Assembly: GCF_002953215.1 (NCBI RefSeq)
Contig: NZ_CP026378.1
Coordinates: 624,540-664,539, forward strand
Direction of reading: 5' to 3'
DNA: 40,000 bases
Origin: Mixta calida
Lineage (GTDB): Bacteria > Pseudomonadota > Gammaproteobacteria > Enterobacterales > Enterobacteriaceae
Position numbers and translations under genes: made by a program. This document shows, one piece after another, positions 5,450 to 36,725 of this stretch. The notes below the pieces were generated by a model. That model saw only the letters and a program-made list of their open reading frames with translations, made no database searches and had not been told where the DNA came from. The number at the start of each line of letters is the position of its first letter. Position 1 is the first letter of the stretch.

Positions 5450-6976
<1,527 letters not shown>

Positions 6977-7225
6977 TTAAAGACAACGGCGCTGGCTGCG
7001 GCTAGAATGTACCGCTTCGTAACGCTTACGCCGTTGCGTACGACGTTTCTGATAAAAAAGGACGTCAGTTTGTGTTTCAGTGACATTGTTATTTTTTACG
7101 TCACCTGAACGCTTGTGTCATACACTAGATCTATGACAACGGCCATTGATGATGAAAAATGGCGAATAAGCGTTGAAACTATCGATTTTCCAGCAAAAAG
7201 ACAAGTTTTCACAGGCATACGAAGC

Positions 7226-19440: not shown

Positions 19441-19468
19441 TTGCGCAGGTGGCCGGTAAGGGTATAAT
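19441..19468 (+). promoter_or_regulatory. Sigma70-type promoter of leuX
   Basis: TTGCGC (19441-19446), a 16-nt spacer, then a perfect TATAAT (19463-19468), ~28 nt upstream of the mature tRNA 5' end. Confidence 0.6.
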
Positions 19469-19496
19469 CCTCAACGTTTTCCGCATACCCTTCAGT

Positions 19497-19581
19497 GCCG
19501 AAGTGGCGAAATCGGTAGACGCAGTTGATTCAAAATCAACCGTAGAAATACGTGCCGGTTCGAGTCCGGCCTTCGGCACCA
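19497..19581 (+). tRNA. leuX: tRNA-Leu (anticodon CAA)
   Basis: 85 nt: GCCGAAGTGGCGAAATCGGTAGACGCAGTTGATTCAAAATCAACCGTAGAAATACGTGCCGGTTCGAGTCCGGCCTTCGGCACCA. Class II cloverleaf with a long variable arm, anticodon loop TTCAAAA and encoded CCA. Appears identical to E. coli leuX as I recall it. Confidence 0.97.
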
Positions 19582-19745
19582 AGACCTCTTCCAAGACCAT
19601 CCGAGAAAGTCCATCAAACCCTTTAAAATCAAGGCGTACAGCGGTTTTTGTATCCGGTGTTGTCCGAGTCCGTCCGTTGAAATCCAAGGGGCACTGGGGG
19701 CATAATTGGGGGCATCTTAACTTCGATTAGAAATGTGCCCCCAAA

Positions 19746-21014
19746 ATGAAGCTCAACGCCAGACAGGTAGAGACCGCAAAGCCTAAAGACAAAACCTACA
19801 AAATGGCCGATGGTGGCGGTTTGTATCTTGAGGTTTCGGCTAAGGGTTCTAAATACTGGCGCATGAAATACAGGCGCCCCTCTGACAAAAAAGAGGATCG
19901 CCTTGCTTTTGGTGTTTGGCCTACTGTTACGCTTGCTCAGGCTAGAACAAAGCGCGATGAAGCTAAAAAGCTGTTAGTGCAGGGCATAGACCCAAAAGCC
20001 GAACAGAAAGAAGCTCAGGCCGAGAATTCAGGGGCATATACTTTCGAAACCATTGCTCGTGAATGGCATGCCAGTAACAAGCGCTGGAGTGAAGACCACC
20101 GATCACGCGTCTTACGCTATCTTGAGCTTTATATCTTCCCTTATATCGGTTCATCCGACATTCGCCAGCTTAAAACTAGTCACCTGTTAGCCCCGATTAA
20201 AAAAGTTGATGCCAGTGGAAAGCATGACGTCGCTCAGCGCTTGCAACAGCGCGTCACGGCCATTATGCGTTATGCCGTACAGAACGATTACATCGACTCA
20301 AATCCAGCCAGTGATATGGCCGGTGCTCTATCGACAACCAAAGCGCGACATTACCCTGCTTTACCCTCAAGCCGATTCCCTGAGTTTCTTGCTCGTCTTG
20401 CTGCATATCGTGGCCGTGTAATGACGCGGATCGCGGTCGAGCTTTCATTACTCACTTTTGTGCGTTCCAGTGAGTTACGTTTCGCGCGTTGGGATGAGTT
20501 CGACTTCGATAAATCTCTCTGGCGTGTACCTGCAAAACGAGAAGAAATTAAGGGCGTGCGTTATTCGTACCGTGGCATGAAGATGAAAGAGGAGCATATT
20601 GTTCCACTTAGTCGACAAGCGGTGATTTTGTTAGAGCAGTTAAAGCAGATTAGCGGTGATAAGGAGCTGCTGTTTCCGGGGGATCACGACGCAACTAAGG
20701 TTATGAGTGAAAACACCGTAAATAGCGCACTACGTGCGATGGGATATGACACGAAAACTGAGGTCTGCGGGCATGGATTTAGGACGATGGCGCGGGGGGC
20801 GCTTGGTGAATCAGGATTATGGAGTGATGATGCGATAGAGCGCCAGTTGAGCCATTCAGAGCGTAATAATGTACGTGCAGCTTATATTCATACTTCTGAA
20901 CATCTAGATGAGAGGCGTCTTATGGTTCAATGGTGGGCGGATTATTTAGATATAAGTAAGCATTCTCAAGTCACGCCATATGAGTTTGGAAACACGCTTA
21001 AAGTTAAATATTAA
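19746..21014 (+). CDS. int: P4-family tyrosine integrase
   Basis: 422 aa. N-terminal DUF4102-type arm-binding region (GGGLYLEVSAKGSKYWRMKYR) and catalytic-domain motifs HGFRTMARG and VRAAYIH (the catalytic Tyr). Confidence 0.92.
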   Translation: MKLNARQVETAKPKDKTYKMADGGGLYLEVSAKGSKYWRMKYRRPSDKKEDRLAFGVWPTVTLAQARTKRDEAKKLLVQGIDPKAEQKEAQAENSGAYTFETIAREWHASNKRWSEDHRSRVLRYLELYIFPYIGSSDIRQLKTSHLLAPIKKVDASGKHDVAQRLQQRVTAIMRYAVQNDYIDSNPASDMAGALSTTKARHYPALPSSRFPEFLARLAAYRGRVMTRIAVELSLLTFVRSSELRFARWDEFDFDKSLWRVPAKREEIKGVRYSYRGMKMKEEHIVPLSRQAVILLEQLKQISGDKELLFPGDHDATKVMSENTVNSALRAMGYDTKTEVCGHGFRTMARGALGESGLWSDDAIERQLSHSERNNVRAAYIHTSEHLDERRLMVQWWADYLDISKHSQVTPYEFGNTLKVKY

Positions 21015-21036
21015 GAAATGCCGGTCAAAAGCTAAC

Positions 21037-21492
21037 TTATTTTTTCTGCATTTGACCAAGTGTAATTACAGTTATTAATATTATGTGAACAATATTAAGA
21101 ATGAGAATGTATAAACCACATTTCAAAATTGTTAATGCAACATTAAATGGCATTATGATAGCCACCATGCATAATAAAAATGTTACCAATAAAAAAATAA
21201 TGCTCTGCCCATATATATGGTAGAATATATTTATATATCCTTGCTGTCGCCACCTTAGAAAAGAAGTCTTATCAGATACCGATATAATGTAAGCGCCAAT
21301 TGCAGCAATGAATCCAGTCATTGTGAAACTGAAAGTCCCTAATAATGTAGCGATACCGATTATACCTTCAGGTTTTATCGCTATGTATTGGTTTTCACAA
21401 AACACCGCAATGAGAGAAAAAACAACAGCAGTAAGAATGCTTACACCCCACGTGGCTATATTAATTTTCATTATTGCTTGGTTAGTAAGCAT
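21037..21492 (-). CDS. Cargo protein B: small polytopic (about 4 TM) membrane protein, unknown family
   Basis: I prefer the start at Met19 (ATG 21492). GAGGA lies 6 nt upstream and overlaps the stop of the upstream gene. The 151-aa product has four long hydrophobic segments (ATWGVSILTAVVFSLIAVF; GIIGIATLLGTFSFTMTGFIAAIGAYIISV; IIFLLVTFLLCMVAIIM; LTILKCGLYILILNIVHIILITVITL). Very AT-rich. Confidence 0.6.
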   Translation of the reverse strand: MLTNQAIMKINIATWGVSILTAVVFSLIAVFCENQYIAIKPEGIIGIATLLGTFSFTMTGFIAAIGAYIISVSDKTSFLRWRQQGYINIFYHIYGQSIIFLLVTFLLCMVAIIMPFNVALTILKCGLYILILNIVHIILITVITLGQMQKK

Positions 21493-21500
21493 CGTTATCC

Positions 21501-22442
21501 TCAACTTTTTGTTTTGTGGTAACTTTCTGTTTTTAGAGCAGCCCACACCGGATCAATAATACCTGAATGTATGCGTCCAGTAAATTTTTGTGCATATGTA
21601 CTCACTTCACTTATAACAACTTGGTTTTTATATATTTTTTCAAGTATTTGCTCTTCAATCTTTGTTTTGAGATGAGGGTTTATTATATCAAAAATATTCT
21701 GATTTTGATCTAAAATAAACTCTTTCACATTTGATTGAAATTCATCCGCCTTAGCTCTGAAATAAATTTCTGCATACTCTTTGTCATTGGATGAAGATAA
21801 GCTTGAGAGTAATGGTTGTATATAATCCTTCACATTCTCTTTTCTATCTTTTCTTTTTACGATAATTTGTACTTCCATATTGTCTGATGGGTCCTTGCCA
21901 AACAATCCATTTATTACATCCCCAACAGAATCATTATTTAACTTCACTCGCGCTTCAGTGATGAGTTTGAATTTCGTAGCCGATGTGGATTTGATTTCTA
22001 TTTTTAGCGTGCAAAGCTCGAAGGTGTAAATATGCGATTGAAAATCTTGATTAATTATTTCGTTAATAAAGAATTGCAAATCATCAATGTCAGCATTACC
22101 TTTACCCTCGGTTACTCCGATTATTGAATGTTTAGGGTCAACAAAAAAGTAAGTGACTTTCTCTAGACTATCTTTACCAAGCACAGACGCCAAGTCATTT
22201 ACCACACCAGTTGCTCTATCTACAGCTTTAAATGCTGTAGTAATTGCTGGCGTGGTCAAATAGTATATGCCATCAAATGAGGTGGGCATGGCTAGGTACA
22301 GTCTTTTTAACCCTTTATTTTTCTCAAAAAGAGATTTTTTTCTATGCAAACAAAAATTTTTGATAATATCTGAAATGTTATCAAAATAAACTTGTTGATT
22401 TCTATTGTCGGTTATTCTGTAAGTGAAATAATTTAATTTCAT
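21501..22442 (-). CDS. Cargo protein A: 313-aa soluble protein, no recognisable family or catalytic motif
   Basis: Long uninterrupted ORF in DNA of roughly one-third G+C, where stops are frequent by chance. AAGAG lies upstream of the ATG. The product is Lys/Asn/Ile-rich, with an apparently alpha/beta N-terminal half and a helical C-terminal half. Translationally linked to cargo B. Confidence 0.7.
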   Translation of the reverse strand: MKLNYFTYRITDNRNQQVYFDNISDIIKNFCLHRKKSLFEKNKGLKRLYLAMPTSFDGIYYLTTPAITTAFKAVDRATGVVNDLASVLGKDSLEKVTYFFVDPKHSIIGVTEGKGNADIDDLQFFINEIINQDFQSHIYTFELCTLKIEIKSTSATKFKLITEARVKLNNDSVGDVINGLFGKDPSDNMEVQIIVKRKDRKENVKDYIQPLLSSLSSSNDKEYAEIYFRAKADEFQSNVKEFILDQNQNIFDIINPHLKTKIEEQILEKIYKNQVVISEVSTYAQKFTGRIHSGIIDPVWAALKTESYHKTKS

Positions 22443-22473
22443 GTTCTCTTTCGCCTAGAGTGTTGATTTTTTT

Positions 22474-22502
22474 ATCATTGATCAGAAATATACTTTTAAC
22501 AA
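22474..22502 (-). promoter_or_regulatory. Candidate sigma70 promoter of the cargo operon
   Basis: The minus strand reads TTGTTA (22502-22497), a 17-nt spacer, then AATGAT (22479-22474), ~30 nt upstream of the ATG at 22442. Sequence match only. Confidence 0.25.
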
Positions 22503-22685
22503 GTATGCCTGCTCATTTTTTTGGGGAGGTCAATATATTATGTATTGGTATTGTTCACCTGCGTGCCTCGTAAGAGCATCAAACCTACTTTATGCATTTG
22601 CCACTGACCCATAAACGTTTATCTGCATACATCTGCGATGTACACAGGGTACGAAAATAAATGTGCATCATTGCTATTGGCGCGC

Positions 22686-22712
22686 AATGCTCTCCCCACC
22701 CCGCCTGCCCGC
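22686..22712. other. P2/P4-type cos-like site
   Basis: aatgctctccccaccccgcctgcccgc. Its complement, GGGCAGGCGGGGTGGGGAGAGCAT, resembles the P2/186 cohesive end GGCGAGGCGGGGAAAGCAC (recalled from memory) with a small insertion. Its position between cargo and the late operon is as in the P4 prophage. Confidence 0.4.
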
Positions 22713-22865
22713 TTCATGTAGCGGTTTTCATGCAGGTGCATGAGCGTCCCGAAACCGCGCCGCCACTGGTCGGAACGGGAGAATTGCAGGTGCATTTATT
22801 CATGCGTTTTCATGCGGCATAGTCATGCACTGCCGCAACGGCGGGCCAGCCAGAGAAAAAGCCAC

Positions 22866-22889
22866 AAAAAACCCGGCGCGGTGGCCGGG
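22866..22889 (-). terminator. Rho-independent terminator of the sid-psu-ogr/delta operon
   Basis: The minus strand has stem cccggc / gccggg (22889-22884 and 22877-22872) with a 6-nt loop, followed by tttttt (A-run 22866-22871 on plus). It lies 21 nt after the delta stop. Confidence 0.6.
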
Positions 22890-22909
22890 GAAGGAATCAA
22901 GTCGAATGC

Positions 22910-23185
22910 TCAGGCGGGAGCGTGCTGCCGGTTCGACAGCCTGCTGGCTGCGCCGTAGCGGTTAAGCGTCTGCGGTGCCCGCTTCGGGGTTTCCGGCGCC
23001 GGTTCGGGTGTTTCTGCTGCCTTCTGCGGCTTCATAATGATGCTGTCCAGGCTTTCCAGCGTGGTGAAGGTGCAGGAGCAGTCAATATTACGGCACTGAT
23101 ACCAGGTCTTTTTCAGCGTGCCGGTCTGGTACTCACTGGTACGGGTGTGGGCGGTGGTGCCGCACTCCGGGCATTTCATGGCCAT
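22910..23185 (-). CDS. Ogr/Delta family zinc-finger late transcription activator (single-domain)
   Basis: MAMKCPECGTTAHTRTSEYQTGTLKKTWYQCRNIDCSCTFTTLESLDSIIMKP matches P2 Ogr (CPLCQHAAHARTSRY...YHQCQNVNCSATFITYES...IVKP). I prefer the start at 23185 (AGGAGG 9 nt upstream); the ORF track gives 23209. Confidence 0.85.
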   Translation of the reverse strand: MAMKCPECGTTAHTRTSEYQTGTLKKTWYQCRNIDCSCTFTTLESLDSIIMKPQKAAETPEPAPETPKRAPQTLNRYGAASRLSNRQHAPA

Positions 23186-23186
23186 C

Positions 23187-23744
23187 TTAGCGGCCCTCCT
23201 GCTGTGCATTCAGCTTTTCCAGCCGAAACCGGTAGCCTGCATCCCTGGCCGGGGTGCGGATGGCGGCAGCGTCATCGCGCACTGCGCTGTCAGGATACAG
23301 CCCTGTCTCATTGAGGATGGCCTGGTATTCTTCAGCCACCACGGGCGCGCTGATTTCAGCCTCGCGGACAACGGCGGCACGCAACGTTCGCATGGCGGTT
23401 TCCAGCCCGGCGGGGCCGTTCAGGTAAGGTGCCAGCGCACCGGTCAGCGCAGCGCCATGCGCATCCATAAAGGCGGTCAGCGCTTCACTCACACACGTAT
23501 CAATCACATAACGATGTGCCTGAAGCACGTCACCGGCGGCACAGATAATCTGCCAGGTCAGCACGTCCTGCCATTCACGCAGGTTATCCGCCTGCTCGGC
23601 GTAATCAGTGGGTTTGCCCTCACTACTGAACAGTGTTTCAAGCTGCTGCTGTTTGTTTTCACGGTCAGCGCGCAGGATGCGCCAGCTTTCACCGGCACTG
23701 CGGTACTGGCTCAGGGCATCCTGTGGGGTGATTGCGTTTATCAT
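23187..23744 (-). CDS. psu: Psu-like (polarity suppression / capsid decoration) protein
   Basis: 185 aa (P4 Psu is ~190 aa), with a block HGAALTGALAPYL similar to P4 Psu HGTALAAALAPEL. Its start overlaps the sid stop (ATGA). It is paralogous to the upstream Sid-like protein, sharing the ETGLYP motif. Confidence 0.6.
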   Translation of the reverse strand: MINAITPQDALSQYRSAGESWRILRADRENKQQQLETLFSSEGKPTDYAEQADNLREWQDVLTWQIICAAGDVLQAHRYVIDTCVSEALTAFMDAHGAALTGALAPYLNGPAGLETAMRTLRAAVVREAEISAPVVAEEYQAILNETGLYPDSAVRDDAAAIRTPARDAGYRFRLEKLNAQQEGR

Positions 23745-24481
23745 GCTTTATCTCCTGCGGCCTTCTGTTGCTTAACCCTCATTCTGTGGCGGGCTGCGGG
23801 AGTGGGGGCCAGGCGCGCATCGCTGTATGCCTGCGGGGCCGGATACAGCCCGGTTTCTTCAAGCAGCGCATCGCCCTCAGCCGACGGGTTGTGGTCCACT
23901 GCTTTCGTCATGATTTCTTCGTGGATGAACTGCCTGAACATCGTGGTGCTGTCATTCACCCCTTCAACCCCTCCGTCGTGTTCGTTCCGCATGGCAAGCC
24001 AGCGCAGGCTCAGGGCGTGTATCAGCGCCTGGCCGTGTTCTTTCATAAATTGCGCCCAGACGTGACGGGCATGGGCATTTATCAGGGACTGGTGCGCGCT
24101 GGTATAGGCCACAGCCCGGTCGCCGGTGGTCCAGGGCAGGGTTTCAGTTTCGGCCTGGTGCGCGGCCAGCAGGTCATCGAATTCGTCCAGCGTTTCGCGG
24201 CCCAGCGCAATTTCGGCGCGCAGCTTCTTCATGCGTGGCGTCATTGCGCCCTGGTTTTCACGGAACAGCTGGCGCCATTCTTCGTTCTGCGCTCTGGCTT
24301 CTGCCTCCGTTTCTCCACGGCGTTTGCGGATGGTCTCCGCCATGCCTGCGGCATCTGCCTGTTTCTGGCGTGCGGCAAGCCATGCGGATTTGCTGCTTTT
24401 TACGCGCTCCAGCGCCTGCTGTGTGGCGGCAGGCAGGGCGGCAATGGCATCAGTGGTCGGGGTCCGGGTGGTGTCGGTCAT
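23741..24481 (-). CDS. sid: Sid-like capsid size determination (external scaffold) protein
   Basis: I prefer the start at Met47 of the ORF (MTDTTRTPTTD...), giving 246 aa against ~244 aa for P4 Sid. It is a helical Ala/Glu/Arg-rich protein and the first gene downstream of paired TGT-N12-ACA boxes. Confidence 0.6.
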   Translation of the reverse strand: MTDTTRTPTTDAIAALPAATQQALERVKSSKSAWLAARQKQADAAGMAETIRKRRGETEAEARAQNEEWRQLFRENQGAMTPRMKKLRAEIALGRETLDEFDDLLAAHQAETETLPWTTGDRAVAYTSAHQSLINAHARHVWAQFMKEHGQALIHALSLRWLAMRNEHDGGVEGVNDSTTMFRQFIHEEIMTKAVDHNPSAEGDALLEETGLYPAPQAYSDARLAPTPAARHRMRVKQQKAAGDKA

Positions 24482-24515
24482 AAATGGCTCCGTTGCGGTG
24501 TTTTCGTTAACGCCA

Positions 24516-24572
24516 TTGTGCCGTTGCTGGCACAACCCGGCTAACGGACAGCGTTGTGTCAGCCACCAGACA
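24516..24572 (-). promoter_or_regulatory. Psid-like late promoter with two Ogr/Delta boxes (TGT-N12-ACA)
   Basis: Box 1 is TGTgtcagccaccagACA at 24555-24572. Box 2 is tTGTGCCgttgctGGCACAa at 24516-24535 (7-bp perfect arms). Their centres are 38 bp apart and lie 82 and 45 bp upstream of the sid ATG. Confidence 0.55.
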
Positions 24573-24645
24573 AAAAAGCCTTTCTTCTGGCGAGCCAGGG
24601 AAGGTTTCACGCAAGCCATTATTCAGCTTTTAGTTTTATATATAT

Positions 24646-24748
24646 CCTTCACCATTCTTCACCAGAAAGAAAAATAAAGGAAATACAGCTAATTAAGAGG
24701 TGAACAGTTTAGAAACAATCCTTCACCCTCTGTTCACCATTCTTCATC
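24646..24748. repeat. ori-like cluster of alpha-protein iterons (TGTTCACC family)
   Basis: CCTTCACC at 24646, TCTTCACC at 24656, GGTGAACA (inverted TGTTCACC) at 24699, CCTTCACC at 24720, TGTTCACC at 24731 and TCTTCATC at 24741. AT-rich surroundings. Confidence 0.5.
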
Positions 24749-24896
24749 CCTCAGAGGGCACTAATAAATTATTTCGCATGGTAATTCCTTTTAATTTAAC
24801 GGTTTTCATTGGCGGAAACTTACTCTTCGTTTTACTCCGTTTCTATTCGTTCATATTCGTTTTTATTTGTTAGTAATGAGCGAAAAACAACCGTTT

Positions 24897-24914
24897 TGTA
24901 GAGGCGCTGGCACA
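24897..24914 (+). promoter_or_regulatory. Third TGT-N12-ACA box (PLL-like late promoter facing the early/replication genes)
   Basis: TGTagaggcgctggcACA lies ~110 bp upstream of the alpA-like ATG. If it is centred at -55, an A/T-rich -10 candidate lies around 24945-24953. Confidence 0.35.
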
Positions 24915-25016
24915 ATCCGGGCTTGTTGCTTTGAGCGAAAATATGCTGAAAATAAAGAGCTACCCGACGCCGGACACGTTCGCCCGGCCCCGTATGGAAC
25001 AAACAAGAGGTAGCCC

Positions 25017-25283
25017 ATGCACAGCACGTTATCCGCACATTCTTCCGCTCCGGCGGCCCCGGTTATGCCTGCAACGATGCCGGTTCAGGAGCGCTTTATG
25101 CGCCTTCCGGAAGTCATCCACGTCTGCGGCCTGTCCCGCTCGACCATTTATGACCTTATCAGCCGCGACGCCTTTCCGGCCCAGATTTCCCTGGGCGGCA
25201 AGAACGTGGCATGGCTTGCCAGCGAGGTAAGCGCCTGGATGAACGAACGCATCGCCGCGCGCGGTCAGGAGCGTGCCGCATGA
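25017..25283 (+). CDS. alpA: AlpA/Vis family phage regulatory protein (excisionase-like HTH)
   Basis: RFMRLPEVIHVCGLSRSTIYDLISRDAFPAQISLGGKNVAWLASEVSAWMNER is the AlpA-family core. AAGAGG lies 6 nt upstream of ATG 25017. Confidence 0.8.
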   Translation: MHSTLSAHSSAPAAPVMPATMPVQERFMRLPEVIHVCGLSRSTIYDLISRDAFPAQISLGGKNVAWLASEVSAWMNERIAARGQERAA

Positions 25284-25498
25284 TTATGCTGACCATTGGC
25301 GGTAAAACGCATGACCTGTCCGTGGCCGACGCGAAGCAGCTGGCGCTGGCGATTGCCGCTGAGGTGGACGAGCCGGGGCAGGCACGACGTTTTCGCGGCA
25401 CTGATACCGCCTTTTGCGTGCAAAGCGCAGGCGCGGCCCCTGCAAAAACCGATATGCAGACGTTTTCCCGCGCCGGTATCACCCTCACTGACTGCTGA
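25280..25498 (+). CDS. Small hypothetical satellite protein
   Basis: 72 codons beginning MIMLTIGGKTHDLSVADAKQLALAIAAEV. The ATG overlaps the alpA stop (ATGA). No family recognised. Confidence 0.4.
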   Translation: MIMLTIGGKTHDLSVADAKQLALAIAAEVDEPGQARRFRGTDTAFCVQSAGAAPAKTDMQTFSRAGITLTDC

Positions 25499-25744
25499 GG
25501 CCCATATGCTGTTTTTTCCTGCTTTCCCCGGCTTGCACGCCGGGGCCTTTCCCTGGTACAGTATTTCCGCTGTCGCAAAATCGGCAGCCGGGATTGGCGT
25601 CCCGAATACAACATTGGCGACACCAGACGCGCCTTGCGTCTTTTTTTGTGTCTGTGCCCTGATGCACCCATTTTTCGCGCAATGGCTTGTAATCCCTTGT
25701 GCCTGTCGAGTAATGGTGGCTCAGGCGGGGGCTTCTCACGAAGC

Positions 25745-25825
25745 GCCGGTTTCCAATGTTGCCGGTTACGCCAACCCTGTCTGGGCTACCACCAGTGAAA
25801 TTGGCGTTTCCGGTGGTAGCAGCAA
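25745..25825 (+). ncRNA. Candidate P4 CI / C4-antisense-like immunity RNA (approximate bounds)
   Basis: Non-coding stretch with a perfect 9-bp stem gctaccacc (25785-25793) / ggtggtagc (25812-25820) and an 18-nt loop, plus repeated GTTTCC motifs (25749, 25806). It lies immediately upstream of an Icd-like mini-ORF, as c4 does in P1-type immunity loci. Confidence 0.35.
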
Positions 25826-25850
25826 GCTACTAACATTGGAGATTGCCCTT

Positions 25851-25934
25851 ATGGCTACGGTCCTTAACTCCCCACACCCTCAGTTCTCACTGATCTTCGC
25901 CGCCCGCCTGCCGGTCCGGGAGGGGCGCGCATGA
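25851..25934 (+). CDS. Icd-like mini-ORF (27 codons, possibly an internally deleted remnant)
   Basis: [27 protein letters not shown]. The N- and C-terminal motifs resemble the 'host cell division inhibitor Icd-like' proteins of P4-like prophages (...FAARLPV...) as I recall them, but the middle is missing. GGAG lies 9 nt upstream. The stop overlaps the next ATG. Confidence 0.35.
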   Translation: MATVLNSPHPQFSLIFAARLPVREGRA

Positions 25935-26155
25935 ACCACATCCTGATTTCGTATTCAGACCTGCTTCGTCTGGAGCATCTGCGCAATGCCGGGCGCTTCG
26001 TCAGTGACATGACGGCCCTTCAGGACTGCCACGAACAGCCGCAGCCGCTTCAGCACGCGCAGCTGGCCTCACTGGTGTTTCTCATCACTGAACAGCTCGA
26101 CGCCGTGGTGACACGCTGCCATGACGGCGTGATGAATGAAGAGGTGAAACCATGA
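25931..26155 (+). CDS. Small hypothetical satellite protein
   Basis: 74 aa. ATGA overlaps on both sides place it in the early operon upstream of alpha. No family recognised. Confidence 0.4.
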
Positions 26156-26475
26156 ATACCCATGCCCTTTCTCCTGACCTGCGCGCTGCGCTTTCCCGCC
26201 GGGCGGTGGCCTGTGCCTGGCTTTCCCTGTGCCGCAGACAGCAGCGCTACCCCATGCTGACGCTAACGCGTCTTGAGCAGGCGATTGAAAACGAGCTGGA
26301 AGGCTTTTACCTGCGCCAGCATGGCCGGGTGCGCGGGCAGGAGATTGCCTGCGCGCTGCTGGATGACCTGCTGGCCACCGGGCCGCTGAAGTCAGCCCCG
26401 TGCCTGAGCTTTCTGGGTCAGGTGGTGATGGACGAGCTGTGCGGACGTCTGGAAAGCACGCCGCTGCTGCACTGA
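26152..26475 (+). CDS. Hypothetical satellite protein upstream of alpha
   Basis: 107 aa, translationally coupled to the preceding ORF. It occupies the position of the P4 epsilon/orf151 region. No family recognised. Confidence 0.45.
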
Positions 26476-26489
26476 GGGAGAAAATCATA

Positions 26490-28823
26490 ATGAAAATGAC
26501 CGTATCAGACGCGGCAAAAGCCGCCCGGGGCCACTGGCCCCGCATTCTGCCCGCACTGGGCCTGAACGTGGTGAAGAACCGCCACATGCCGTGCCCGGTG
26601 TGCGGCGGCACCGACCGCTTCCGCTTTGACGACCAGGAGGGGCGCGGCACCTGGCTCTGCAACCAGTGCGGGGCCGGTGACGGCATGGACCTGGTGAAAA
26701 AGGCGCTGCGCATTAACCTGACCGAGGCCGCCGCGCGCGTGAACGGCCTGACCGGCAACCTGCCGCCGGTGGATGATACTGCCGTTGCCCCTGCAGACGC
26801 CGAAGATGATGAAGCGGCACGCGAAACTGCCGCCGCGCTGGCCCAGGAGCTGGTAAGCAGCGCCCGTGAAGCCGCCGGTAACGCCTACCTGTCTCACAAG
26901 GGCTGGCCTGAGCAGTCCTGTCTGACGCTGACGAAGCCGCAGAAGATAGCGATAACCATCTACCGTCCCGGCGACATGATGGTGCCGCTGCATGACATGA
27001 GCGGTCAGCTGGTTAACGTGCAGCTCATTAACGCGGAGGGCGTCAAGCGCACCCTGAAGGGCGGACAGGTTAAAGAGGCCTGCCACATTTTTGGCAGCGG
27101 AAAACCGGCAAAACGCATCTGGCTGACCGAGGGATACGCCACCGGCCTGACGGTGCATAACCTGAGCGGCGATGAGGTGTGGGTTGCCCTGTCGTCCTCT
27201 AATCTTCTTTCCCTGGCTGGCCTGGCGCGGGAGAAACACGCCACGCTGCCGCTGCTGATTGCCGCCGACCGGGACCTGAACGGCGACGGCCAGCGGAAGG
27301 CGCAGAAGGCCGCTGAAGCCTGCAACGCCACGGTGGCGCTGCCGCCGGTGTTTGGTGACTGGAACGATGCGTACACGCAGCAGGGCGAAGCAGTTACCCG
27401 GCAGGCCCTGCGTGAGGCCGCCGTACCGCCTGCGGCCAGTCCGTTTGACGTGATGAGCGAGGCGGAGTTTACCGCCATGAGCGCCAGCGAGAAGGCAGAG
27501 CGCGTGGCGGAGCATTACCGCAGCAATCTTGCCGTGGACGCCAGCGGGGAGATTCTCTGTCGCTACGAGGCAGGCGCCTGGAAGGTGATTTCCGGTAACC
27601 AGTTCGGGCGCGACGTGGCGCAGCTGTTCCAGCGCCTGCGCGCGCCGTTCTCAGCGGGCAAAATCGCGGGCGTGGTGGACACGCTGAAGCTGATGCTGCC
27701 GCAGCAGGCCGCACCACAGCGTCAGCTTATCGGCTTTCGCAACGGCGTACTCGATACGCGCACCGGCCTCTTCAGCCCGCACCGCCGGGAAAACTGGCTG
27801 CGCACCGTCAGCGACGTGGACTATACCCGCCCGGTAGAGGGCGAAACGCTGGAGCGCCACGCGCCGCACTTCTGGCAGTGGCTGGACCGTGCCGCCGGGC
27901 GTAACGCGGAGAAACGCGACATCATTCTGGCCGCGCTGTTTATGGTGCTGGCGAACCGCTACGACTGGCAGCTGTTTCTGGAGGTGACCGGTCCCGGCGG
28001 CAGCGGCAAAAGCATTATGTCAGATATCGCCACCATGCTGGCCGGTGCGGATAATGCCACCTCCGCGACCATCGAGACGCTGGAATCGTCGCGTGAGCGC
28101 GCGTCCGTTATCGGCTACTCACTGATTATTCTGCCGGACCAGGAGAAGTGGAGCGGCGACGGCGCGGGCCTCAAGGCGATTACCGGCGGTGATGCGGTGT
28201 CCGTGGACCCGAAGTACAAAGACGCCTACTCCACGCACATCCCGGCGGTGATTCTGGCCGTGAACAACAACCCGATGCGCTTTACCGACCGCAGCGGGGG
28301 CGTGTCGCGCCGCCGGGTGATCCTGCATTTCCCGGAAATCATCCCGGCAAACGAGCGCGACCCGCAGCTGAAGGAAAAGATACAGTCAGAGCTGGCCGTT
28401 ATCGTGCGCCAGCTGATGCAGCGCTTCAGGGACCCGCAGGACGCCCGCAGGCTGCTTCAGTCGCAGCAGAACTCCGGCGAGGCGATGCGCATCAAGCGCG
28501 ACGCTGACCCGATGGTGGACTTCTGCGGCTACCTGTTTGCCACCGCTGAGCCGACTGGCCTGCACATGGGCAACGCCAGCATCCGCCCGTTACAGCCCAG
28601 GCGCTACCTCTATCACGCCTATCTCGCGTATATGGAAGCCAACGGCTACCGCAACCCGCTCAGCATGAAATCATTCAGCCAGGCACTGGAAAGTATCCTG
28701 CGTGAGTACGGCCTGAACTACCTGAAGCGGCGCACGAAAACAGGAATACAGACCAACCTCGACCTGACGGATGAAAGCAGCACTGACTGGCTGCCGAAGT
28801 GTGACGATCCGGCAGCAGCCTGA
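26490..28823 (+). CDS. P4 alpha-type primase-helicase replication protein
   Basis: I prefer the start at Met31 of the ORF (GAGGGA upstream), giving 777 aa, the length I recall for P4 alpha. Zinc ribbon CPVCGGTDRFRFDD...CNQCG, a TOPRIM-like EGYATG...ADRDLNGDGQ and a D5-type helicase Walker A GPGGSGKS. Confidence 0.92.
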   Translation: MKMTVSDAAKAARGHWPRILPALGLNVVKNRHMPCPVCGGTDRFRFDDQEGRGTWLCNQCGAGDGMDLVKKALRINLTEAAARVNGLTGNLPPVDDTAVAPADAEDDEAARETAAALAQELVSSAREAAGNAYLSHKGWPEQSCLTLTKPQKIAITIYRPGDMMVPLHDMSGQLVNVQLINAEGVKRTLKGGQVKEACHIFGSGKPAKRIWLTEGYATGLTVHNLSGDEVWVALSSSNLLSLAGLAREKHATLPLLIAADRDLNGDGQRKAQKAAEACNATVALPPVFGDWNDAYTQQGEAVTRQALREAAVPPAASPFDVMSEAEFTAMSASEKAERVAEHYRSNLAVDASGEILCRYEAGAWKVISGNQFGRDVAQLFQRLRAPFSAGKIAGVVDTLKLMLPQQAAPQRQLIGFRNGVLDTRTGLFSPHRRENWLRTVSDVDYTRPVEGETLERHAPHFWQWLDRAAGRNAEKRDIILAALFMVLANRYDWQLFLEVTGPGGSGKSIMSDIATMLAGADNATSATIETLESSRERASVIGYSLIILPDQEKWSGDGAGLKAITGGDAVSVDPKYKDAYSTHIPAVILAVNNNPMRFTDRSGGVSRRRVILHFPEIIPANERDPQLKEKIQSELAVIVRQLMQRFRDPQDARRLLQSQQNSGEAMRIKRDADPMVDFCGYLFATAEPTGLHMGNASIRPLQPRRYLYHAYLAYMEANGYRNPLSMKSFSQALESILREYGLNYLKRRTKTGIQTNLDLTDESSTDWLPKCDDPAAA

Positions 28824-28830
28824 CTACCCG

Positions 28831-28853
28831 AACCGGCGAAAGCCGGTTTTTTT
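28831..28853 (+). terminator. Rho-independent terminator of alpha
   Basis: aaccggc-gaaa-gccggtt followed by tttttt, starting 8 nt after the stop codon. Confidence 0.8.
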
Positions 28854-28963: not shown

Positions 28964-29100
28964 TTATTTATAAAATCTTTTTTTATGCTGCTTTTTCGAG
29001 CCAGCATTTCCAGGTGTAATTACACAATCTCAAATTTTGATTGTGGACGAATATTAATCCGGTAGATATGGTATTGATACAGCCATAAATGAGGTGCGAA

Positions 29101-29544
29101 ATGGATACAGTTGAAGAGCTAGGCGGCACATATTTTTACAAAGGAATGTTTAATCTCACCGCAGGGGAGCTTTTTTTCTTCGTGTTTTTGGATGAGGCTC
29201 AAAAACAACTTGGTGTAGAGGATATAGCTACATTAGCACTGATAATTTTAGGTCAGCCAACCCAAAGTACGCGAGCGAAACCAGCCGGGACGACGAAAGG
29301 AACGTCAATCTTGAGCGCAAATCTTCGCGTTTGGTTAAAAATCAGGGTACACCGCTGGCCTACCCTTACAACTGAGAGCATTAAACGGCTAAAGTTTACT
29401 TACGTTAATAATCTGGGTGCTTTTGCTGGACGCTGGATACCTATACTTGGGATAGGTTTTATAATGAATGATGTGACTCAAATCGCATGGAAAACGACCC
29501 ATAACTATAACCTGATTGCAAAGAAAGGTGACAAGCTATGGTAA
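29101..29544 (+). CDS. Hypothetical protein resembling the 'STM2901 family'
   Basis: I prefer the start at 29101 (GAGG 6 nt upstream), giving 147 aa. Two hydrophobic stretches (GELFFFVFL...TLALIILG; WIPILGIGFIM). Family name recalled from memory only. Confidence 0.45.
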   Translation: MDTVEELGGTYFYKGMFNLTAGELFFFVFLDEAQKQLGVEDIATLALIILGQPTQSTRAKPAGTTKGTSILSANLRVWLKIRVHRWPTLTTESIKRLKFTYVNNLGAFAGRWIPILGIGFIMNDVTQIAWKTTHNYNLIAKKGDKLW

Positions 29545-29888
29545 AAGACACGACAGAAAGCGCTGTTTTGGAATGGTATGACAATAACTATAATTCTAAA
29601 CCTCTTTTCTCAAGAGAGAAGCCTGAGTTAACGCTTGAAACCAGCCTATCGACAGGAAAATATCCCTGGGCCAGGGAAACAGGTGATGAAATTATGAAAG
29701 ATTATTTTGAACGTTTTAATGTTGATAATAGCGAATTCGACTTTATTGCATATTGGCCTTATGAAAAAGGTTTGCTGCCTAACTTCTTAAGACCTAAATC
29801 TCAAAAAATCCCCAATGTTGAACCAAAGCCTCTGACGCTTCGTATGCTCATTGAATCAGCAAAAGCTGGTCGTTGGCTTTTCAGCTAA
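29538..29888 (+). CDS. DUF1493-like protein
   Basis: 116 aa (the family is ~115 aa). Overlaps the upstream gene by 7 nt. Trp/Tyr/acidic-rich: LEWYDNNYN...DYFERFNVDNSEFDFIAYWPYE. Assignment from memory. Confidence 0.5.
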   Translation: MVKDTTESAVLEWYDNNYNSKPLFSREKPELTLETSLSTGKYPWARETGDEIMKDYFERFNVDNSEFDFIAYWPYEKGLLPNFLRPKSQKIPNVEPKPLTLRMLIESAKAGRWLFS

Positions 29889-30169: not shown

Positions 30170-30330
30170 GTGCCTGAAATCCAGTATCCGCAAGGCTTTC
30201 CTCGCTTTTTCACTCAACCTAAGTCAACCTGATTCAATCTACATCAACTTACTGATGCGGGTACAACTGCGGGTATATCCCGGTTCGATAATGTTTGTAC
30301 CCACACAGAACCCTTGAAAGGATACTCATC

Positions 30331-31506
30331 ATGGCTCTGAGTGATGTGAAGGTTCGTTCGGCAAAGCCGGAAGCAAAAGCCTATAAGCTTACCGATGGTG
30401 ACGGCATGGTATTGTTGGTTCACCCGAATGGCTCGAAATACTGGCGGCTTCGTTATCGCTTTGGCGGTAAAGAGAAGATGCTGGCGTTGGGGAAATATCC
30501 TGAAGTTTCGCTGGCGGATGCCAGGGCACGCAGGGATGAGGCCCGTAAGCTATTAGCTAATGGTGTCGATCCCAGTGAGAATAAGAAAGCCGTTAAGGTA
30601 GAGCAGGAGCAAGAGGCGATAACGTTTGAAGTGGTCGCCAGAGGCTGGCATGCCAGCAATCAGAAGTGGTCTACATCGCACAGTGCCCGTGTTTTGAAAA
30701 GCCTTGAAGATAATCTCTTTGCTGCTATTGGTAAGCGGAACATTGCGGAGCTGAAGACACGAGATTTGCTTGTACCCATTAAGGCGGTGGAATCATCCGG
30801 ACGACTCGAAGTTGCCGCCCGTTTACAACAGCGTACTACCGCGATTATGCGCTTTGCTGTGCAGAGCGGCTTAATCGACTATAACCCCGCGCAAGAGATT
30901 GCCGGTGCGGTTGCTACGGCGAAAAGACAGCATCGTGCTGCATTGGAACTTAACCGCATTCCTGAATTACTTCACCGCATCGATCACTACTCTGGCAGAC
31001 CGTTAACCCGACTGGCTGTCGAACTCACGTTGTTAGTTTTCATCCGTTCAAGCGAACTGCGTTTTGCCCGCTGGTCAGAAGTGGATTTTGATACTGCCAT
31101 GTGGACGATTCCAGGGGAGCGTGAACCGCTGGAAGGCGTTAAACATTCTCAGCGTGGTTCAAAGATGCGGACTCCACATCTTGTTCCTTTGTCGCGGCAG
31201 GCTCTGGCTATTTTGGAAAAGATCAAAAGCATGAATGGGAACCGTGACCTGATCTTCGTAGGAGGTCACGATCCGCGTAAACCCATGAGTGAGAACACGG
31301 TGAACAAGGCTCTACGAGTGATGGGTTATGACACAAAAACAGAAGTATGTGGACATGGTTTCAGGACGATGGCTTGTAGCTCATTGATTGAGTCGGGGCT
31401 GTGGTCGAGGGATGCGGTGGAGCGGCAGATGAGTCACCAGGAGCGTAGCTCTGTTCGAGCAGCTTACATCCACAAGGCGGGTGATGCTGCCAACTTACTG
31501 ATTTAG
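30331..31506 (+). pseudogene. P4-family tyrosine integrase, C-terminally truncated by IS1
   Basis: MALSDVKVRSAKPEAKAYKLTDGDGM...GSKYWRLRYR...HGFRTMACS...VRAAYIHKA is native up to 31479. The last 9 codons (GDAANLLI*) are read from the IS1 left end. About 30 C-terminal residues are missing relative to the 422-aa paralog at 19746. Confidence 0.8.
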
Positions 31507-31534
31507 TGTATGATGGTGTTTTTGAGGTGCTCCA

Positions 31535-31810
31535 GTGGCTTCTGTTTCTATCACCTGTCCCTCCTGTTCAGCTACTGACGGGGTGGTGCGTAACGGCAAA
31601 AGCACTGCCGGACATCAGCGCTATCTCTGCTCTCACTGCCGTAAAACATGGCAACTGCAGTTCACTTACACCGCTTCTCAACCCGGTACGCACCAGAAAA
31701 TCATTGATATGGCCATGAATGGCGTTGGATGCCGGGCAACCGCCCGCATTATGGGCGTTGGCCTCAACACGATTTTACGTCACTTAAAAAACTCAGGCCG
31801 CAGTCGGTAA
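31535..31810 (+). CDS. insA: IS1 InsA
   Basis: 91 aa, [43 protein letters not shown]..., canonical InsA. Confidence 0.93.
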
Positions 31811-32232
31811 CCTCGCGCATACAGCCGGGCAGTGACGTCATCGTCTGCGCGGAAATGGACGAACAGTGGGGCTATGTCGGGGCTAAATCGCGCCAGCGCT
31901 GGCTGTTTTACGCGTATGACAGGCTCCGGAAGACGGTTGTTGCGCACGTATTCGGTGAACGCACTATGGCGACGCTGGGGCGTCTTATGAGCCTGCTGTC
32001 ACCCTTTGACGTGGTGATATGGATGACGGATGGCTGGCCGCTGTATGAATCCCGCCTGAAGGGAAAGCTGCACGTAATCAGCAAGCGATATACGCAGCGA
32101 ATTGAGCGGCATAACCTGAATCTGAGGCAGCACCTGGCACGGCTGGGACGGAAGTCGCTGTCGTTCTCAAAATCGGTGGAGCTGCATGACAAAGTCATCG
32201 GGCATTATCTGAACATAAAACACTATCAATAA
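31729..32232 (+). CDS. insB: IS1 InsB reading frame (expressed as the InsAB' transposase by -1 frameshift)
   Basis: Canonical InsB sequence ...[29 protein letters not shown]... The frame overlaps insA at the A6C motif. Confidence 0.88.
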
Positions 32233-32249
32233 GTTGGAGTCATTACCTG

Positions 32250-33044
32250 TCGCCTGTACAGCTGGCGGCCGTACTTTCAGACAAGACAGTAACGGAAGCC
32301 GAGACTATCAGTAACAGACTGCTTGGTGGATTAGGCGTTTTGCTTGGCGGCGTTGAAATGGCCGGAGCAGCAACGTTATGTATAGCGCCAGAGCCAACTG
32401 GTCTGACTAAAGCAGGATGTATGGTCGTTGGCGCTCATAGCCTGGATAGCGTACATGCCGCAGCTCAGCAGATGATATCCGGTAGGGATACGCGTTCAGC
32501 TACATATCAGTTAGCAGTGAGCGCAGCCCGACAGCTAGGGGCTGATGAAGATACAGCATTAAAAATAGGCATGACGGTTGATATTGCTGTTCCGATTGGA
32601 TTTGCAATAGTTATTGGCGCAGCAAGAGTCGCAGCTGTCAAAGCTGGCCGTGTCAGGCTGATCGAGCATGAATCCTTAACCGGATTAAAACCGGGCGGTC
32701 ATACTCTGGCAAATCATGTAGGCAAAACAGACAGTGAACTGTTGGCTCGATTTGAACAAAATAAGCGGCTCATGATGTCGTCAACATTTAAAAATCTGAA
32801 TGTTGCTGAGAGCGTTATTTCACGGGCGCTTTATATTAACCGGGATGGTATCAAATCTGCATTAGCTGGCGGTAAGCGAGGTGTACGTCTTACTATCAAC
32901 TATCCTGCCGGACGTGAAATAGGATATGGATATGCCCGTGGAAATACCCAGCGAATAAACATGTACGCTGTACGTATTGTTATTGATATTCAGGAATATA
33001 AAGGGAAACCTTATTATATTCTTACCGCCTTCCCGACCCCATAG
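32250..33044 (+). pseudogene. 3' fragment of a polymorphic toxin gene (CdiA/Rhs-type), C-terminal RNase-A-like (BECR-type) toxin domain
   Basis: The frame is open right up to the IS1 right end (SPVQLAAVLSDKTV...) with no credible start, so it is the C-terminus of a larger protein. A glycine-zipper/hydrophobic pre-toxin region is followed by GGHTLANHVGKTDSELLARF..., which resembles the bacterial CdiA-CT RNase A-like domain (from memory). Confidence 0.65.
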
Positions 33045-36146: not shown

Positions 36147-36725
36147 TCACTTCCGCCTGACCAGCCCGTTTACCCACACTTCATGTCGTCCCGGACGCTT
36201 ATCCTCGCTCAGCCAGATATCCTGTAGCGTCACGCCATCCAGTTCTTCAATCAGCTCACGCAGTCGCGCCTCGGTAAGATCGGTAAAGCGTCGGCCACTC
36301 TGTTCGCGCTCGCCGCTGCCGCGCTTAAAAGACAGATACCAGACGCCGCCCGGCTTTAGCGCCTGCGCTAAGCGAGTAAACGTCTCCGGCAGTTCCGCTT
36401 CGGCGACATGCAGCAGCGAAGCGCAGCACCAGATGCCGCCGTAGCGCGCCGGGGCGCTGAACTCATCGAAGCGCAGCGTTTTTACCGGCAGACCGGTCAG
36501 CGCGCGGGCGCGTGCCGCCATCTCGCTGGCGGCGTCAAACGCGTCGACCAGATAGCCGCGTCTCAGGAAAGCCAGCGCGTCGCGCCCGGAGCCGCAGCCC
36601 GCGTCCAGAATAAGCGCCTCCGGCTCCAGGCAGGCGAGAAAGCGATCGTGCAGCGCGGACATATCCACCGTGACCGTCTCGTCGAAAAAGCGCTGCGCGT
36701 GCTGCTGGTAATAATCGATGCTCAT
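36147..36725 (-). CDS. Class I SAM-dependent methyltransferase (small-molecule type, no DNA-MTase motif IV)
   Basis: I prefer the start at Met13 of the ORF (MSIDYYQQHAQ...). Motif I is ILDAGCGSGRDALAFLRRG, followed by acidic post-I VDAFDAS. No (D/N/S)PP(Y/F/W) motif. The ATG shares 1 nt with the stop of the upstream HNH gene. Confidence 0.8.
   Translation of the reverse strand: MSIDYYQQHAQRFFDETVTVDMSALHDRFLACLEPEALILDAGCGSGRDALAFLRRGYLVDAFDAASEMAARARALTGLPVKTLRFDEFSAPARYGGIWCCASLLHVAEAELPETFTRLAQALKPGGVWYLSFKRGSGEREQSGRRFTDLTEARLRELIEELDGVTLQDIWLSEDKRPGRHEVWVNGLVRRK

Follow-up and report, generated by a model that had tools for sequence, protein, structure and literature searches.

The closest described relative of the two-gene cargo studied here comes from the int-cos hotspot of P4, a site of exchanged and mostly defensive cargo (Rousset et al. 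2022, PMC9122126). Kiwa is also found in P4 hotspots, in the clone pFR79 'WYL-Kiwa' (PMC9122126). System #22, 'RexA | RexB', was catalogued among 69 E. coli P4 hotspots, cloned from Escherichia marmotae E1118 with its native promoter as pFR86 'RexAB-like', and then tested (PMC9122126). The preprint of that study lists the pair as system 7, 'RexA-tm', which 'provides moderate protection against P1vir' (10.1101/2021.01.21.427644). In the final paper, pFR86 is placed among the 'additional tested systems', outside the seven robust ones; no 'robust and reproducible' protection was seen with eight coliphages, and none with five P2-like phages (PMC9122126). The phage panel contained T4 as the wild type only, with no rII mutants (PMC9122126). 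Rex goes unmentioned in the main text of a 2026 NAR study of P2/P4 hotspots.

The characterised Rex-like systems number only five (PMC12894663). In phage lambda, rexA is followed by rexB in one operon, which is tied to the cI repressor and PRM. Exclusion there takes both proteins: RexA activates RexB, the membrane loses its polarisation, ATP drops, and T4 rII mutants are shut out. Lambda RexA needs Arg219 and Lys221 both to bind DNA and to exclude T4rII, and there is no simple correlation of DNA binding with exclusion (PMC11077077). RexABpp from P. putida prophage P1 (PP_5643/PP_5644) is a distant pair of the same type, in which the A protein is recognised by profile and structure and the partner has four transmembrane segments. 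Over-expression of its A protein leads to a growth arrest and membrane permeabilisation that depend on its B protein (PMC12894663).

We analysed a 40,000-nucleotide stretch of the Mixta calida genome (the window; all positions are counted from its first letter). The features of the locus are as follows.

19497–19581, plus strand: tRNA-Leu(CAA), leuX-type, the attachment site of the satellite (ARAGORN).
19746–21014, plus strand: P4-type tyrosine integrase, 422 aa (Pfam Arm-DNA-bind_3, Phage_int_M, and Phage_integrase).
21037–21492, minus strand: gene B, a RexB-like inner-membrane protein of four helices and 151 aa, the proposed effector (ORF and junction).
21501–22442, minus strand: gene A, a soluble RexA-family protein of 313 aa, the proposed DNA-binding sensor and activator (ATG ORF).
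22443–22680, minus strand: AT-rich operon leader, the presumed native promoter (junction match to the pFR86 cargo).
22687–22705, minus strand: cos-like 19-mer GGCGGGGTGGGGAGAGCAT, identical at 15 of 19 positions to GGCGAGGCGGGGAAAGCAC of E. coli P4-like elements.
22872–22889, minus strand: terminator-like hairpin followed by a T-run, 3' of delta (consensus scan).
22910–24619, minus strand: satellite late operon with sid-like (23741–24619), psu (23187–23744), and delta (22910–23209) genes (Pfam Ogr_Delta and Psu; PHROGs phrog_603, phrog_6366, and phrog_6165).
25017–28823, plus strand: satellite early region with an AlpA-type regulator (25017–25283) and an alpha-like primase-helicase (26400–28823) (Pfam Phage_AlpA; Zn_Ribbon_Prim, Toprim_3, D5_N, DUF5906, and Pox_D5; phrog_2249).

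The pair lies between the P4-type integrase and the cos site and late operon of an element that carries psu, delta, sid-like, alpA, and alpha-primase genes. An initial annotation of this DNA had proposed that an AT-rich two-gene operon takes up the whole int-to-cos slot of a P4-like satellite, the documented hotspot for defence systems. The coordinates, the base composition, the integrase, the late and early satellite genes, and the presence of pFR86 in the same slot all agree with this placement. The G+C content is 0.333 over 21015–22680 in comparison with 0.545 for the whole window, and it is at least 0.6 in the flanks. On the cos side, the neighbouring late gene is delta and not psu, and the operon reads sid-like, psu, delta. 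The hairpin at 22872–22889 closes the late operon ahead of cos and the cargo. The cos-like site, also part of the initial annotation, is present, but it matches the P2/P4 cos sequence at 15 of 19 positions only. We found it by aligning the region with the cos-proximal part of the Rousset et al. clones; a search with the canonical P2/P4 cos 19-mer gave no match at up to 3 mismatches, and the site has 4. The tRNA-integrase layout is the same in an E. coli locus (L002).

The two cargo genes form a single operon that is convergent with the integrase gene, as proposed. The TGA stop of gene A (21503–21501) is overlapped by a GAGGA, and the ATG of gene B follows at 21492 after a gap of 8 nt. An alternative GTG start for gene B is located upstream at 21546. 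However, the homologues of B all begin with MLT; therefore, the ATG at 21492 is favoured. In the leader, the sequence after ...GCATTGCGCGC matches the first letters of the pFR86 cargo (CCAATAGCAATGATGCAC...), and the cos-proximal junction is identical to that of the pFR86 clone. Position 22680, the upstream end of the leader, is the cos-side limit of the variable cargo. A scan of 22443–22680 for the sigma-70 consensus revealed no strong or convincing promoter; therefore, the position of the promoter is only presumed.

Compared with the pFR86 system, the Mixta calida pair retains the same two proteins (A and B are 95.2% and 94.7% identical to pFR86 proteins 1 and 2), gene order, integrase-cos slot, and cos-side boundary sequence. 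The hosts differ, Escherichia for pFR86 and Mixta calida (Erwiniaceae) here, and so do the satellite backbones. The psu, sid, and delta products are 30–54% identical, the late genes are arranged here as sid-psu-delta, and the cos sequences have diverged. The same cargo occupies the int-cos slot in 21 of 5426 complete E. coli genomes, in Klebsiella, and at locus L007, and the integrases beside it in E. coli, Klebsiella, and L007 are 96–100% identical to the present one. The A–B module is mobile. It moved with the integrase and the cos-proximal DNA from satellites of the Enterobacteriaceae type onto an Erwiniaceae satellite backbone.

Protein A has no hydrophobic segment and is recognised by two family models. 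Pfam PF15969 covers residues 1–232 with 42.6 bits (gathering cut-off, 25), and the RexA model of PADLOC (E = 5.5e-12) aligns residues 1–278 with profile positions 1–264 of 267. PF15969 is present in all 22 of the homologue clusters of A. An hhalign comparison of a profile built from 17 sequences of A with lambda RexA gave a probability of 90% (E = 1.5e-6) over 183 columns. The AF2 model of A is of medium quality (pTM 0.68, pLDDT 67). Foldseek nevertheless placed the crystal structure of lambda RexA (8TWQ) at the top with an E-value of 1e-7 and a probability of 1.0, and the second match had an E-value of 2.5e-2. The model fits the two-domain fold of RexA, with a global TM-score to 8TWQ of only about 0.4–0.47.

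In the hhalign alignment, S214-D-I-S-L-R219-A-K221 of lambda RexA is placed on A224-E-I-Y-F-R229-A230-K231 of A. Among the 17 homologues, Arg229 is at least 90% conserved, and Ala230 and Lys231 are invariant. Protein A and lambda RexA therefore share the soluble RexA fold and the R-A-K DNA-binding motif. Their identity in the structural alignment is about 17%. Unlike the RexA profile, A has a C-terminal extension of about 35 residues with an invariant Trp300. In direct BLASTP comparisons with lambda RexA and RexB, neither A nor B reached significance. The homology to lambda Rex is visible only by profiles, intermediates, and structure. An Acinetobacter homologue serves as a bridge; BLASTP against the lambda proteins gave E-values of 4e-19 for its A-like protein with RexA and 2e-4 for its B-like protein with RexB. 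Searches of the PDB sequences with phmmer and hmmsearch missed 8TWQ although it was in the library, and NCBIfam and PHROGs gave no useful match for either protein. Taken by sequence profile, fold, and conserved DNA-binding motif, A is a member of the RexA family.

A weak PD-(D/E)xK-like string in A had been noted earlier as a possible catalytic site. Asp102 of this string is conserved, but Glu112 is replaced by Ser or Ala and Lys114 by Leu, Arg, or Ser in the homologues. A PD-(D/E)xK nuclease was therefore rejected, as the catalytic triad is not conserved, and no nuclease family in PADLOC, Pfam, NCBIfam, or PHROGs matched.

Protein B contains four long hydrophobic helices, as expected from the initial annotation and in agreement between a Kyte-Doolittle scan and the AF2 model (pLDDT 82). 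The arrangement proposed there, a soluble sensor paired with a small polytopic membrane effector as in abortive-infection systems, is supported at the level of architecture, with A lacking hydrophobic segments and B having four helices. The RexB model of PADLOC matches B modestly (E = 1.7e-5), and 6 of 10 family members match it, the best with an E-value of 7e-9. With the Pfam RexB model, the family remained below the threshold (best E = 0.13). A shallow hhalign profile of B gave nothing against lambda RexB, and a profile extended with marine and Acinetobacter sequences gave an E-value of 8.9e-4 with a probability of 23%. A Foldseek search of BFVD with the model of B gave nothing at E ≤ 1e-3. 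The two proteins have similar lengths (151 and 144 aa in B and lambda RexB, respectively, both about 150 aa), four transmembrane helices, and a loop motif R-x-x-G-Y in common. The core of B is strongly conserved across genera (TMTGFIAAIGAY; SF-x-x-W-x-x-x-GY). We thus describe B as a small four-helix membrane protein that matches a RexB model, and its putative kinship with RexB follows from this modest HMM match.

At each of the 15 loci examined, which range from E. coli to Colwellia, Idiomarina, Paraglaciecola, and Acinetobacter, A and B are neighbours in this same order, with B directly downstream of the RexA homologue. Both genes are under purifying selection (dN/dS of 0.04–0.14 in comparison with their orthologues from E. 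coli and Klebsiella). B diverges faster than A; its Klebsiella orthologue is 76% identical with a dN of 0.150, in comparison with 91% and 0.048 for A. The pair is also found outside satellites and phages, on Colwellia and Acinetobacter chromosomes and on an Idiomarina island that also encodes a methyltransferase, an HNH protein, a helicase, and a TniQ-like protein.

The pair had been put forward as an undescribed anti-phage system. A scores above the PF15969 cut-off and has a known fold, with lambda RexA as the top structural match in the AlphaFold and Foldseek check, B matches the RexB model of PADLOC, and pFR86 preceded this work. Novelty is refuted because both proteins match a named defence system by HMM or structure, the match of B being modest. 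The Mixta calida pair is an already catalogued, named, and tested system rather than a new one. Its discovery value is therefore small, since the family is in Pfam and PADLOC and a near-identical pair is in the key paper on P4 hotspots. This clade has had no robust phenotype so far; once characterised, it would be the sixth, satellite-borne example of a Rex system.

We consider it very probable that the pair is a two-gene abortive-infection module of the RexAB type, carried as the int-cos cargo of a P4-like satellite and the same as #22/pFR86. Its most likely function, by analogy with lambda RexAB and RexABpp (PMC11077077, PMC12894663), is abortive infection through a sensor that would bind DNA and switch on a membrane effector, and the individual steps below are drawn from the same two systems. 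RexABpp, which we liken to the present pair by its description, is the best experimental model for such distant pairs. The two differ in that RexABpp is prophage-borne near a CI-like repressor, whereas the present pair is satellite-borne, and in that the RexABpp partner has no detectable homology to RexB, whereas B matches the PADLOC model. In the resident satellite, the operon would be expressed constitutively from its own promoter. A dimer of A would bind DNA or phage protein-DNA intermediates that arise in infection. Once activated, A would engage B at the inner membrane, and B would then depolarise or permeabilise the membrane, with a drop in ATP and growth arrest. The cycle of the infecting phage would be left incomplete, and the clone that bears the satellite would be protected. 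P2-like helpers would escape the restriction.

It is conceivable, if rather unlikely, that the trigger or target range of this enterobacterial and marine clade differs from that of lambda RexAB, for example, through a narrow specificity that falls outside the eight-phage panel or one that excludes competitors of the helper. The clade is set apart from lambda by its identity of about 17% to lambda RexA, the additional conserved C-terminal tail, the presumed promoter of its own, and the lack of linkage to a repressor, and it is transferred as a block of int, cargo, and cos between satellites of different bacterial families. The lambda rexAB genes are tied to cI and PRM, whereas the present pair has its own leader and lies in a satellite hotspot. 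If the trigger or range is indeed distinct, the weak phenotype of pFR86 would mask a real and specific defence, and the pair would rank as the first Rex system borne by a satellite to have a defined activator.

The pair might instead serve mainly the satellite life cycle or host physiology, by tipping a repressor switch, in the way that lambda RexA acts on CI/Cro, or by inhibiting ClpXP/ClpAP in the manner of RexB. Lambda RexA modulates the bistable switch without RexB, and RexB inhibits the Clp proteolysis of lambda O and antitoxins (PMC11077077); the weak or irreproducible anti-phage activity of the pFR86 orthologue would also fit such a role. However, the pair sits in an exchanged, mostly defensive hotspot with no linked repressor, and it occurs on the Colwellia and Acinetobacter chromosomes and the Idiomarina island. 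Its occurrence outside satellites and phages, the lack of a repressor link, and the defence hotspot make a satellite-specific regulatory role unlikely, and we regard this explanation as improbable.

The roles of the two proteins could also be reversed, as in gp30/gp31 of mycobacteriophage Butters, with A as a toxic effector that B sequesters until infection frees it. According to the summary given in PMC12894663, it is the RexA-like protein of Butters that acts as effector, and defence does not need the RexB-like protein. The faster evolution of B is in line with this logic, and sequence data do not distinguish which partner is the effector. However, the membrane protein is the effector in four of the five described Rex-like systems (PMC12894663), and the conserved core of B is easier to reconcile with an active channel or effector than with a passive anchor. 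We therefore find the reversed arrangement quite improbable and retain B as the proposed effector.

Kinship with Kiwa, which had been named as the nearest known architecture with the gene order reversed, is hardly credible as an account of an undescribed system: the small four-transmembrane protein and the soluble protein of about 310 aa resemble Kiwa superficially, NCBIfam and PHROGs are silent, and the copies are mostly called 'hypothetical protein', but the genes run in the opposite order, A has a RexA/RdgC-like fold with lambda RexA as the top structure, the literature name is RexAB-like, and the Kiwa models of PADLOC (KwaA, KwaB) and DUF4868 of Pfam, although present in the libraries, gave no match at E ≤ 1, whereas the RexA and RexB models did match.

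Another clone of Rousset et al., pFR81 'RexA + 4TM', is a separate pair that is unrelated to the present one. The E. coli orthologue of A is named 'RexA family antiphage protein' by PGAP. Most other database copies of the pair carry the name 'hypothetical protein', and gene B is often left uncalled; given this annotation, the pair is easily overlooked.

The two-gene operon carried between integrase and cos site of the P4-like satellite is very probably a RexAB-type module, identical in kind to system #22 ("RexA | RexB") of Rousset et al. (PMC9122126). Both products, A (AUY23990.1) and B (AUY23989.1), are annotated as hypothetical proteins. The genes and the surrounding satellite features are located as follows.

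19497-19581, tRNA-Leu(CAA)
19746-21014, P4-type integrase
21037-21492, minus strand, gene B (151 aa), ATG at 21492 and stop at 21037
21501-22442, minus strand, gene A (313 aa), ATG open reading frame with TGA stop at 21503-21501
22687-22705, cos-like 19-mer GGCGGGGTGGGGAGAGCAT, counterpart of GGCGAGGCGGGGAAAGCAC (15 of 19 positions match)
22872-22889, terminator-like hairpin closing the late operon
22910-23209, minus strand, Ogr/Delta protein (99 aa), late operon
23187-23744, minus strand, psu, late operon
23741-24619, minus strand, sid-like gene (292 aa), late operon
25017-25283, AlpA
26400-28823, primase-helicase

The ORF list and the sequence bore out exactly the gene anatomy described in the initial annotation (ORFs, stop, ATGs and spacing). 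A GAGGA overlaps the stop of gene A and is followed by an 8-nt gap to the ATG of gene B. All B homologues have the N-terminus MLT; therefore, the ATG at 21492 is favoured over an upstream GTG at 21546. A hydropathy (Kyte-Doolittle) scan found four hydrophobic segments in protein B, and its AF2 model (pLDDT 82) consists of four long helices and a short connecting helix. Protein A has no hydrophobic segment. The G+C content is 0.30-0.37 over approximately 20900-22700 versus 0.5-0.68 in the flanks, and that of the cargo (21015-22680) is 0.333, compared with 0.545 for the whole window. A and B are real genes, and both are under purifying selection (dN/dS 0.04-0.14 relative to orthologues from E. 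coli and Klebsiella).

Protein A belongs to the RexA family. The PADLOC RexA model matched it over its whole length with an E-value of 5.5e-12 (residues 1-278 on positions 1-264 of the 267-position profile). Pfam PF15969 (RexA, "intracellular sensor of lambda phage, Abi component") scored 42.6 bits, with a curated cut-off of 25, and is carried by all 22 homologue clusters of A from a search of 5.8 billion proteins. Pairwise BLASTP between lambda RexA and protein A was not significant, and PDB sequence searches with A missed lambda RexA. Alignment of a 17-sequence profile of A with lambda RexA gave a probability of 90% over 183 columns (E 1.5e-6). An Acinetobacter tianfuensis homologue, 25% identical to A, matches lambda RexA by BLASTP (E 4e-19). 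Searching the PDB by Foldseek with an AF2 model of protein A (pLDDT 67, pTM 0.68) gave significant matches only to 8TWQ, the crystal structure of lambda RexA (E 1e-7 and 3e-7, both full-length); the following match had an E-value of 2.5e-2. In the profile alignment, R219-A220-K221 of lambda RexA fall on R229-A230-K231 of A, which are invariant or near-invariant in the family. In lambda RexA, the R219A/K221A substitutions abolish DNA binding as well as T4rII exclusion (PMC11077077). The exact protein is named 'SMEK domain-containing protein' in UniRef. It matched neither the SMEK model nor any other in NCBIfam, while the RexA models do match, and the label looks wrong.

The RexB evidence for B is weaker than the RexA evidence for A. 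PADLOC RexB matched protein B with an E-value of 1.7e-5 (residues 46-145 on profile positions 39-135 of 141) and 6 of 10 B-family members (best E 7e-9), while the family missed the Pfam RexB threshold (best E 0.13). Alignment of an extended B profile with lambda RexB by hhalign gave an E-value of 8.9e-4 with a probability of just 23%. The length and four-helix architecture of B agree with RexB, and the two proteins have a loop motif in common (FLRWRQQGY in B, LAKIREYGY in RexB). The Acinetobacter partner of the A homologue matches lambda RexB (E 2e-4). Its synteny with A is invariant, since each of the 15 inspected loci has B immediately after a RexA homologue. These loci are from E. coli, Klebsiella, L007-L009 and, more distantly, Colwellia, Idiomarina, Paraglaciecola and Acinetobacter. 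The Abi-like architecture proposed initially is upheld.

In six Klebsiella loci (L010-L015), tblastn located an intact, full-length gene B with 76% identity at about 6951-7403, which the source annotation left uncalled in every case. The system there therefore looks like a lone RexA gene, and such an annotation gap would conceal the pair from gene-based defence finders. Foldseek of the B model against viral models gave nothing significant. The best viral structural matches for A (E 4.9e-5) and B (E 0.066, TM 0.63) were both from Siphoviridae sp. ctylc9 (BFVD A0A8S5S8L2 and A0A8S5S8H0), and these model comparisons suggest that this uncultured phage carries a RexAB-like pair of the same subtype. 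Mycobacterium phage Sbash encodes a described Rex-like pair. A 165-aa Sbash protein was the rank 4 BFVD match for B.

The pair is already known, and the initial claim of an undescribed system was wrong. Representative sequences of system #22 are of the same family, and Table S2B lists plasmid pFR86 as "RexAB-like", cloned from the P4 locus of Escherichia marmotae E1118 with its native promoter (PMC9122126). Identity to the pFR86 proteins is 95.2% for A and 94.7% for B, without gaps. In Table S4 of the preprint, the pair is system 7, "RexA-tm" (10.1101/2021.01.21.427644), and the PGAP name of the E. coli orthologue WP_000775192 is now "RexA family antiphage protein". The system has therefore been both described and tested, and in essence the cloning and EOP assay proposed earlier already exists for a 95% orthologue. 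"Robust and reproducible resistance" was obtained from seven systems only, with pFR86 under "additional tested systems", and TIR-NLR alone among all 18 P4 systems restricted P2-like phages (PMC9122126). The panel comprised lambda, wild-type T4, P1, 186cIts, CLB_P2, LF82_P8, AL505_P2, T7, P2 and four P2-like isolates; rII mutants were absent (PMC9122126).

The element around the cargo is a P4-like satellite, and its int-cargo-cos hotspot slot had been correctly recognised. E. coli P4-like elements share a conserved stretch beside cos, seen in the clone sequences published by Rousset et al., and the cos-proximal DNA here aligns with it. The variable cargo starts directly past ...GCATTGCGCGC at 22680, and its opening bases, CCAATAGCAATGATGCAC..., are the same as in pFR86. 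The late operon (22910-24619, minus strand) has the order sid-like, psu, delta; an E. coli comparison locus (L002) has the canonical P4 order sid, delta, psu. Delta is a short Ogr-type protein of 99 aa whose gene shares 23 nt with the end of psu. The sid-like protein (292 aa) matches the Psu Pfam model (28.8 bits) and phrog_6165.

Of 5426 complete E. coli genomes, 21 carry the cargo at approximately 94% nucleotide identity, always on the chromosome. The one E. coli locus that was inspected has it at tRNA-Leu, again in the int-[B,A]-psu slot, and so do Klebsiella and one further enterobacterial assembly. Only across 19461-22740, which spans the tRNA, int, B, A and cos, do the window and L002 reach 92% identity; the remaining satellite (22741-28853) is 68-72% identical or unalignable. 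At the protein level, identity is 96-100% for the integrase, 65-68% for the primase and 30-54% for psu, sid-like and delta. This contrast points to int, cargo and cos-proximal DNA as a recently exchanged block. The satellite is mosaic, these parts having apparently moved as one block between bacterial families onto an Erwiniaceae-type backbone. The integrase gene has a G+C content of 0.477, well under that of the Mixta flanks.

Distant members of A and B (25-40% identity) lie outside P4 elements; therefore, the pair is an autonomous two-gene module. Their surroundings are as follows.

Colwellia: a TonB-dependent receptor on one side and lysS on the other
Idiomarina: island that also encodes a large helicase, a methyltransferase and both an HNH and a TniQ-like protein
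Paraglaciecola: adjacent to an integrase, on a 3-kb contig of high coverage
Acinetobacter: flanked by a TetR-family gene and katG

The Paraglaciecola algarum contig (NODE_23, 3026 bp, coverage 323) holds an integrase, the A and B homologues and nothing else. One possibility is a small mobile element, multicopy or excised, that bears just the Rex-like pair.

The module differs from lambda RexAB in several respects. Protein A is only approximately 17% identical to lambda RexA in the structural alignment and extends approximately 35 residues past the RexA profile at its C-terminus, including an invariant Trp300. The pair is satellite-borne, unlike lambda RexAB, which is borne by a temperate phage. 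It is unlinked to a cI-type repressor and has its own AT-rich leader, where a simple scan found no consensus promoter.

Family membership of A, the conserved DNA-binding motif, the four-helix membrane partner, operon linkage, purifying selection and hotspot location are established for the pair, and its mechanism can be modelled on two relatives. Lambda RexA interacts with RexB, which resides in the inner membrane and has four transmembrane helices, and co-expressing the two causes energetic defects (PMC11077077). The distant P. putida pair RexABpp was recognised via its RexA-like component alone, and over-expressing this RexA arrests growth and permeabilises the membrane in a RexB-dependent manner (PMC12894663). 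By analogy, a dimer of A would sense phage DNA or protein-DNA intermediates and activate B, which would depolarise or permeabilise the membrane; ATP would then drop and infection would abort. Within a RexAB-type reading, this lambda-type activation logic is reasonably likely. A mainly non-defensive role, in switch modulation or Clp inhibition (PMC11077077), is improbable, as are reversed roles of A and B of the type known from mycobacteriophage Butters (summarised in PMC12894663). The Kiwa-like or novel system initially proposed is refuted by the PADLOC and Pfam searches, the top fold match of A to 8TWQ and the family of system #22.

The RexAB-type cargo has several neighbours in the window, including a second island (30295-33044) directly past the satellite.

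29089-29888, plus strand, two overlapping small ORFs between primase and second integrase (a 151-aa protein without family match and a 116-aa DUF1493 protein)
30295-31506, second P4-type integrase, 79% identical to the second integrase past the satellite in L002
31729-32232, IS1 transposase fragment
32340-33044, ORF with a CdiA-CT RNase A-like toxin domain at its end
36147-37816, minus strand, two overlapping genes, for an HNH-domain protein (363 aa) and for a SAM-methyltransferase (204 aa)

The two small ORFs are possible additional accessory cargo of the satellite. The toxin-domain ORF has no CdiA body in view and may therefore be an orphan toxin module. In Klebsiella (L015, 9187-10847), a pair 63% and 58% identical to the HNH protein and methyltransferase directly adjoins the P4-like integrase of the same tRNA-Leu locus. 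The HNH-methyltransferase pair may represent a further small module of this region, mobile or defence-like.
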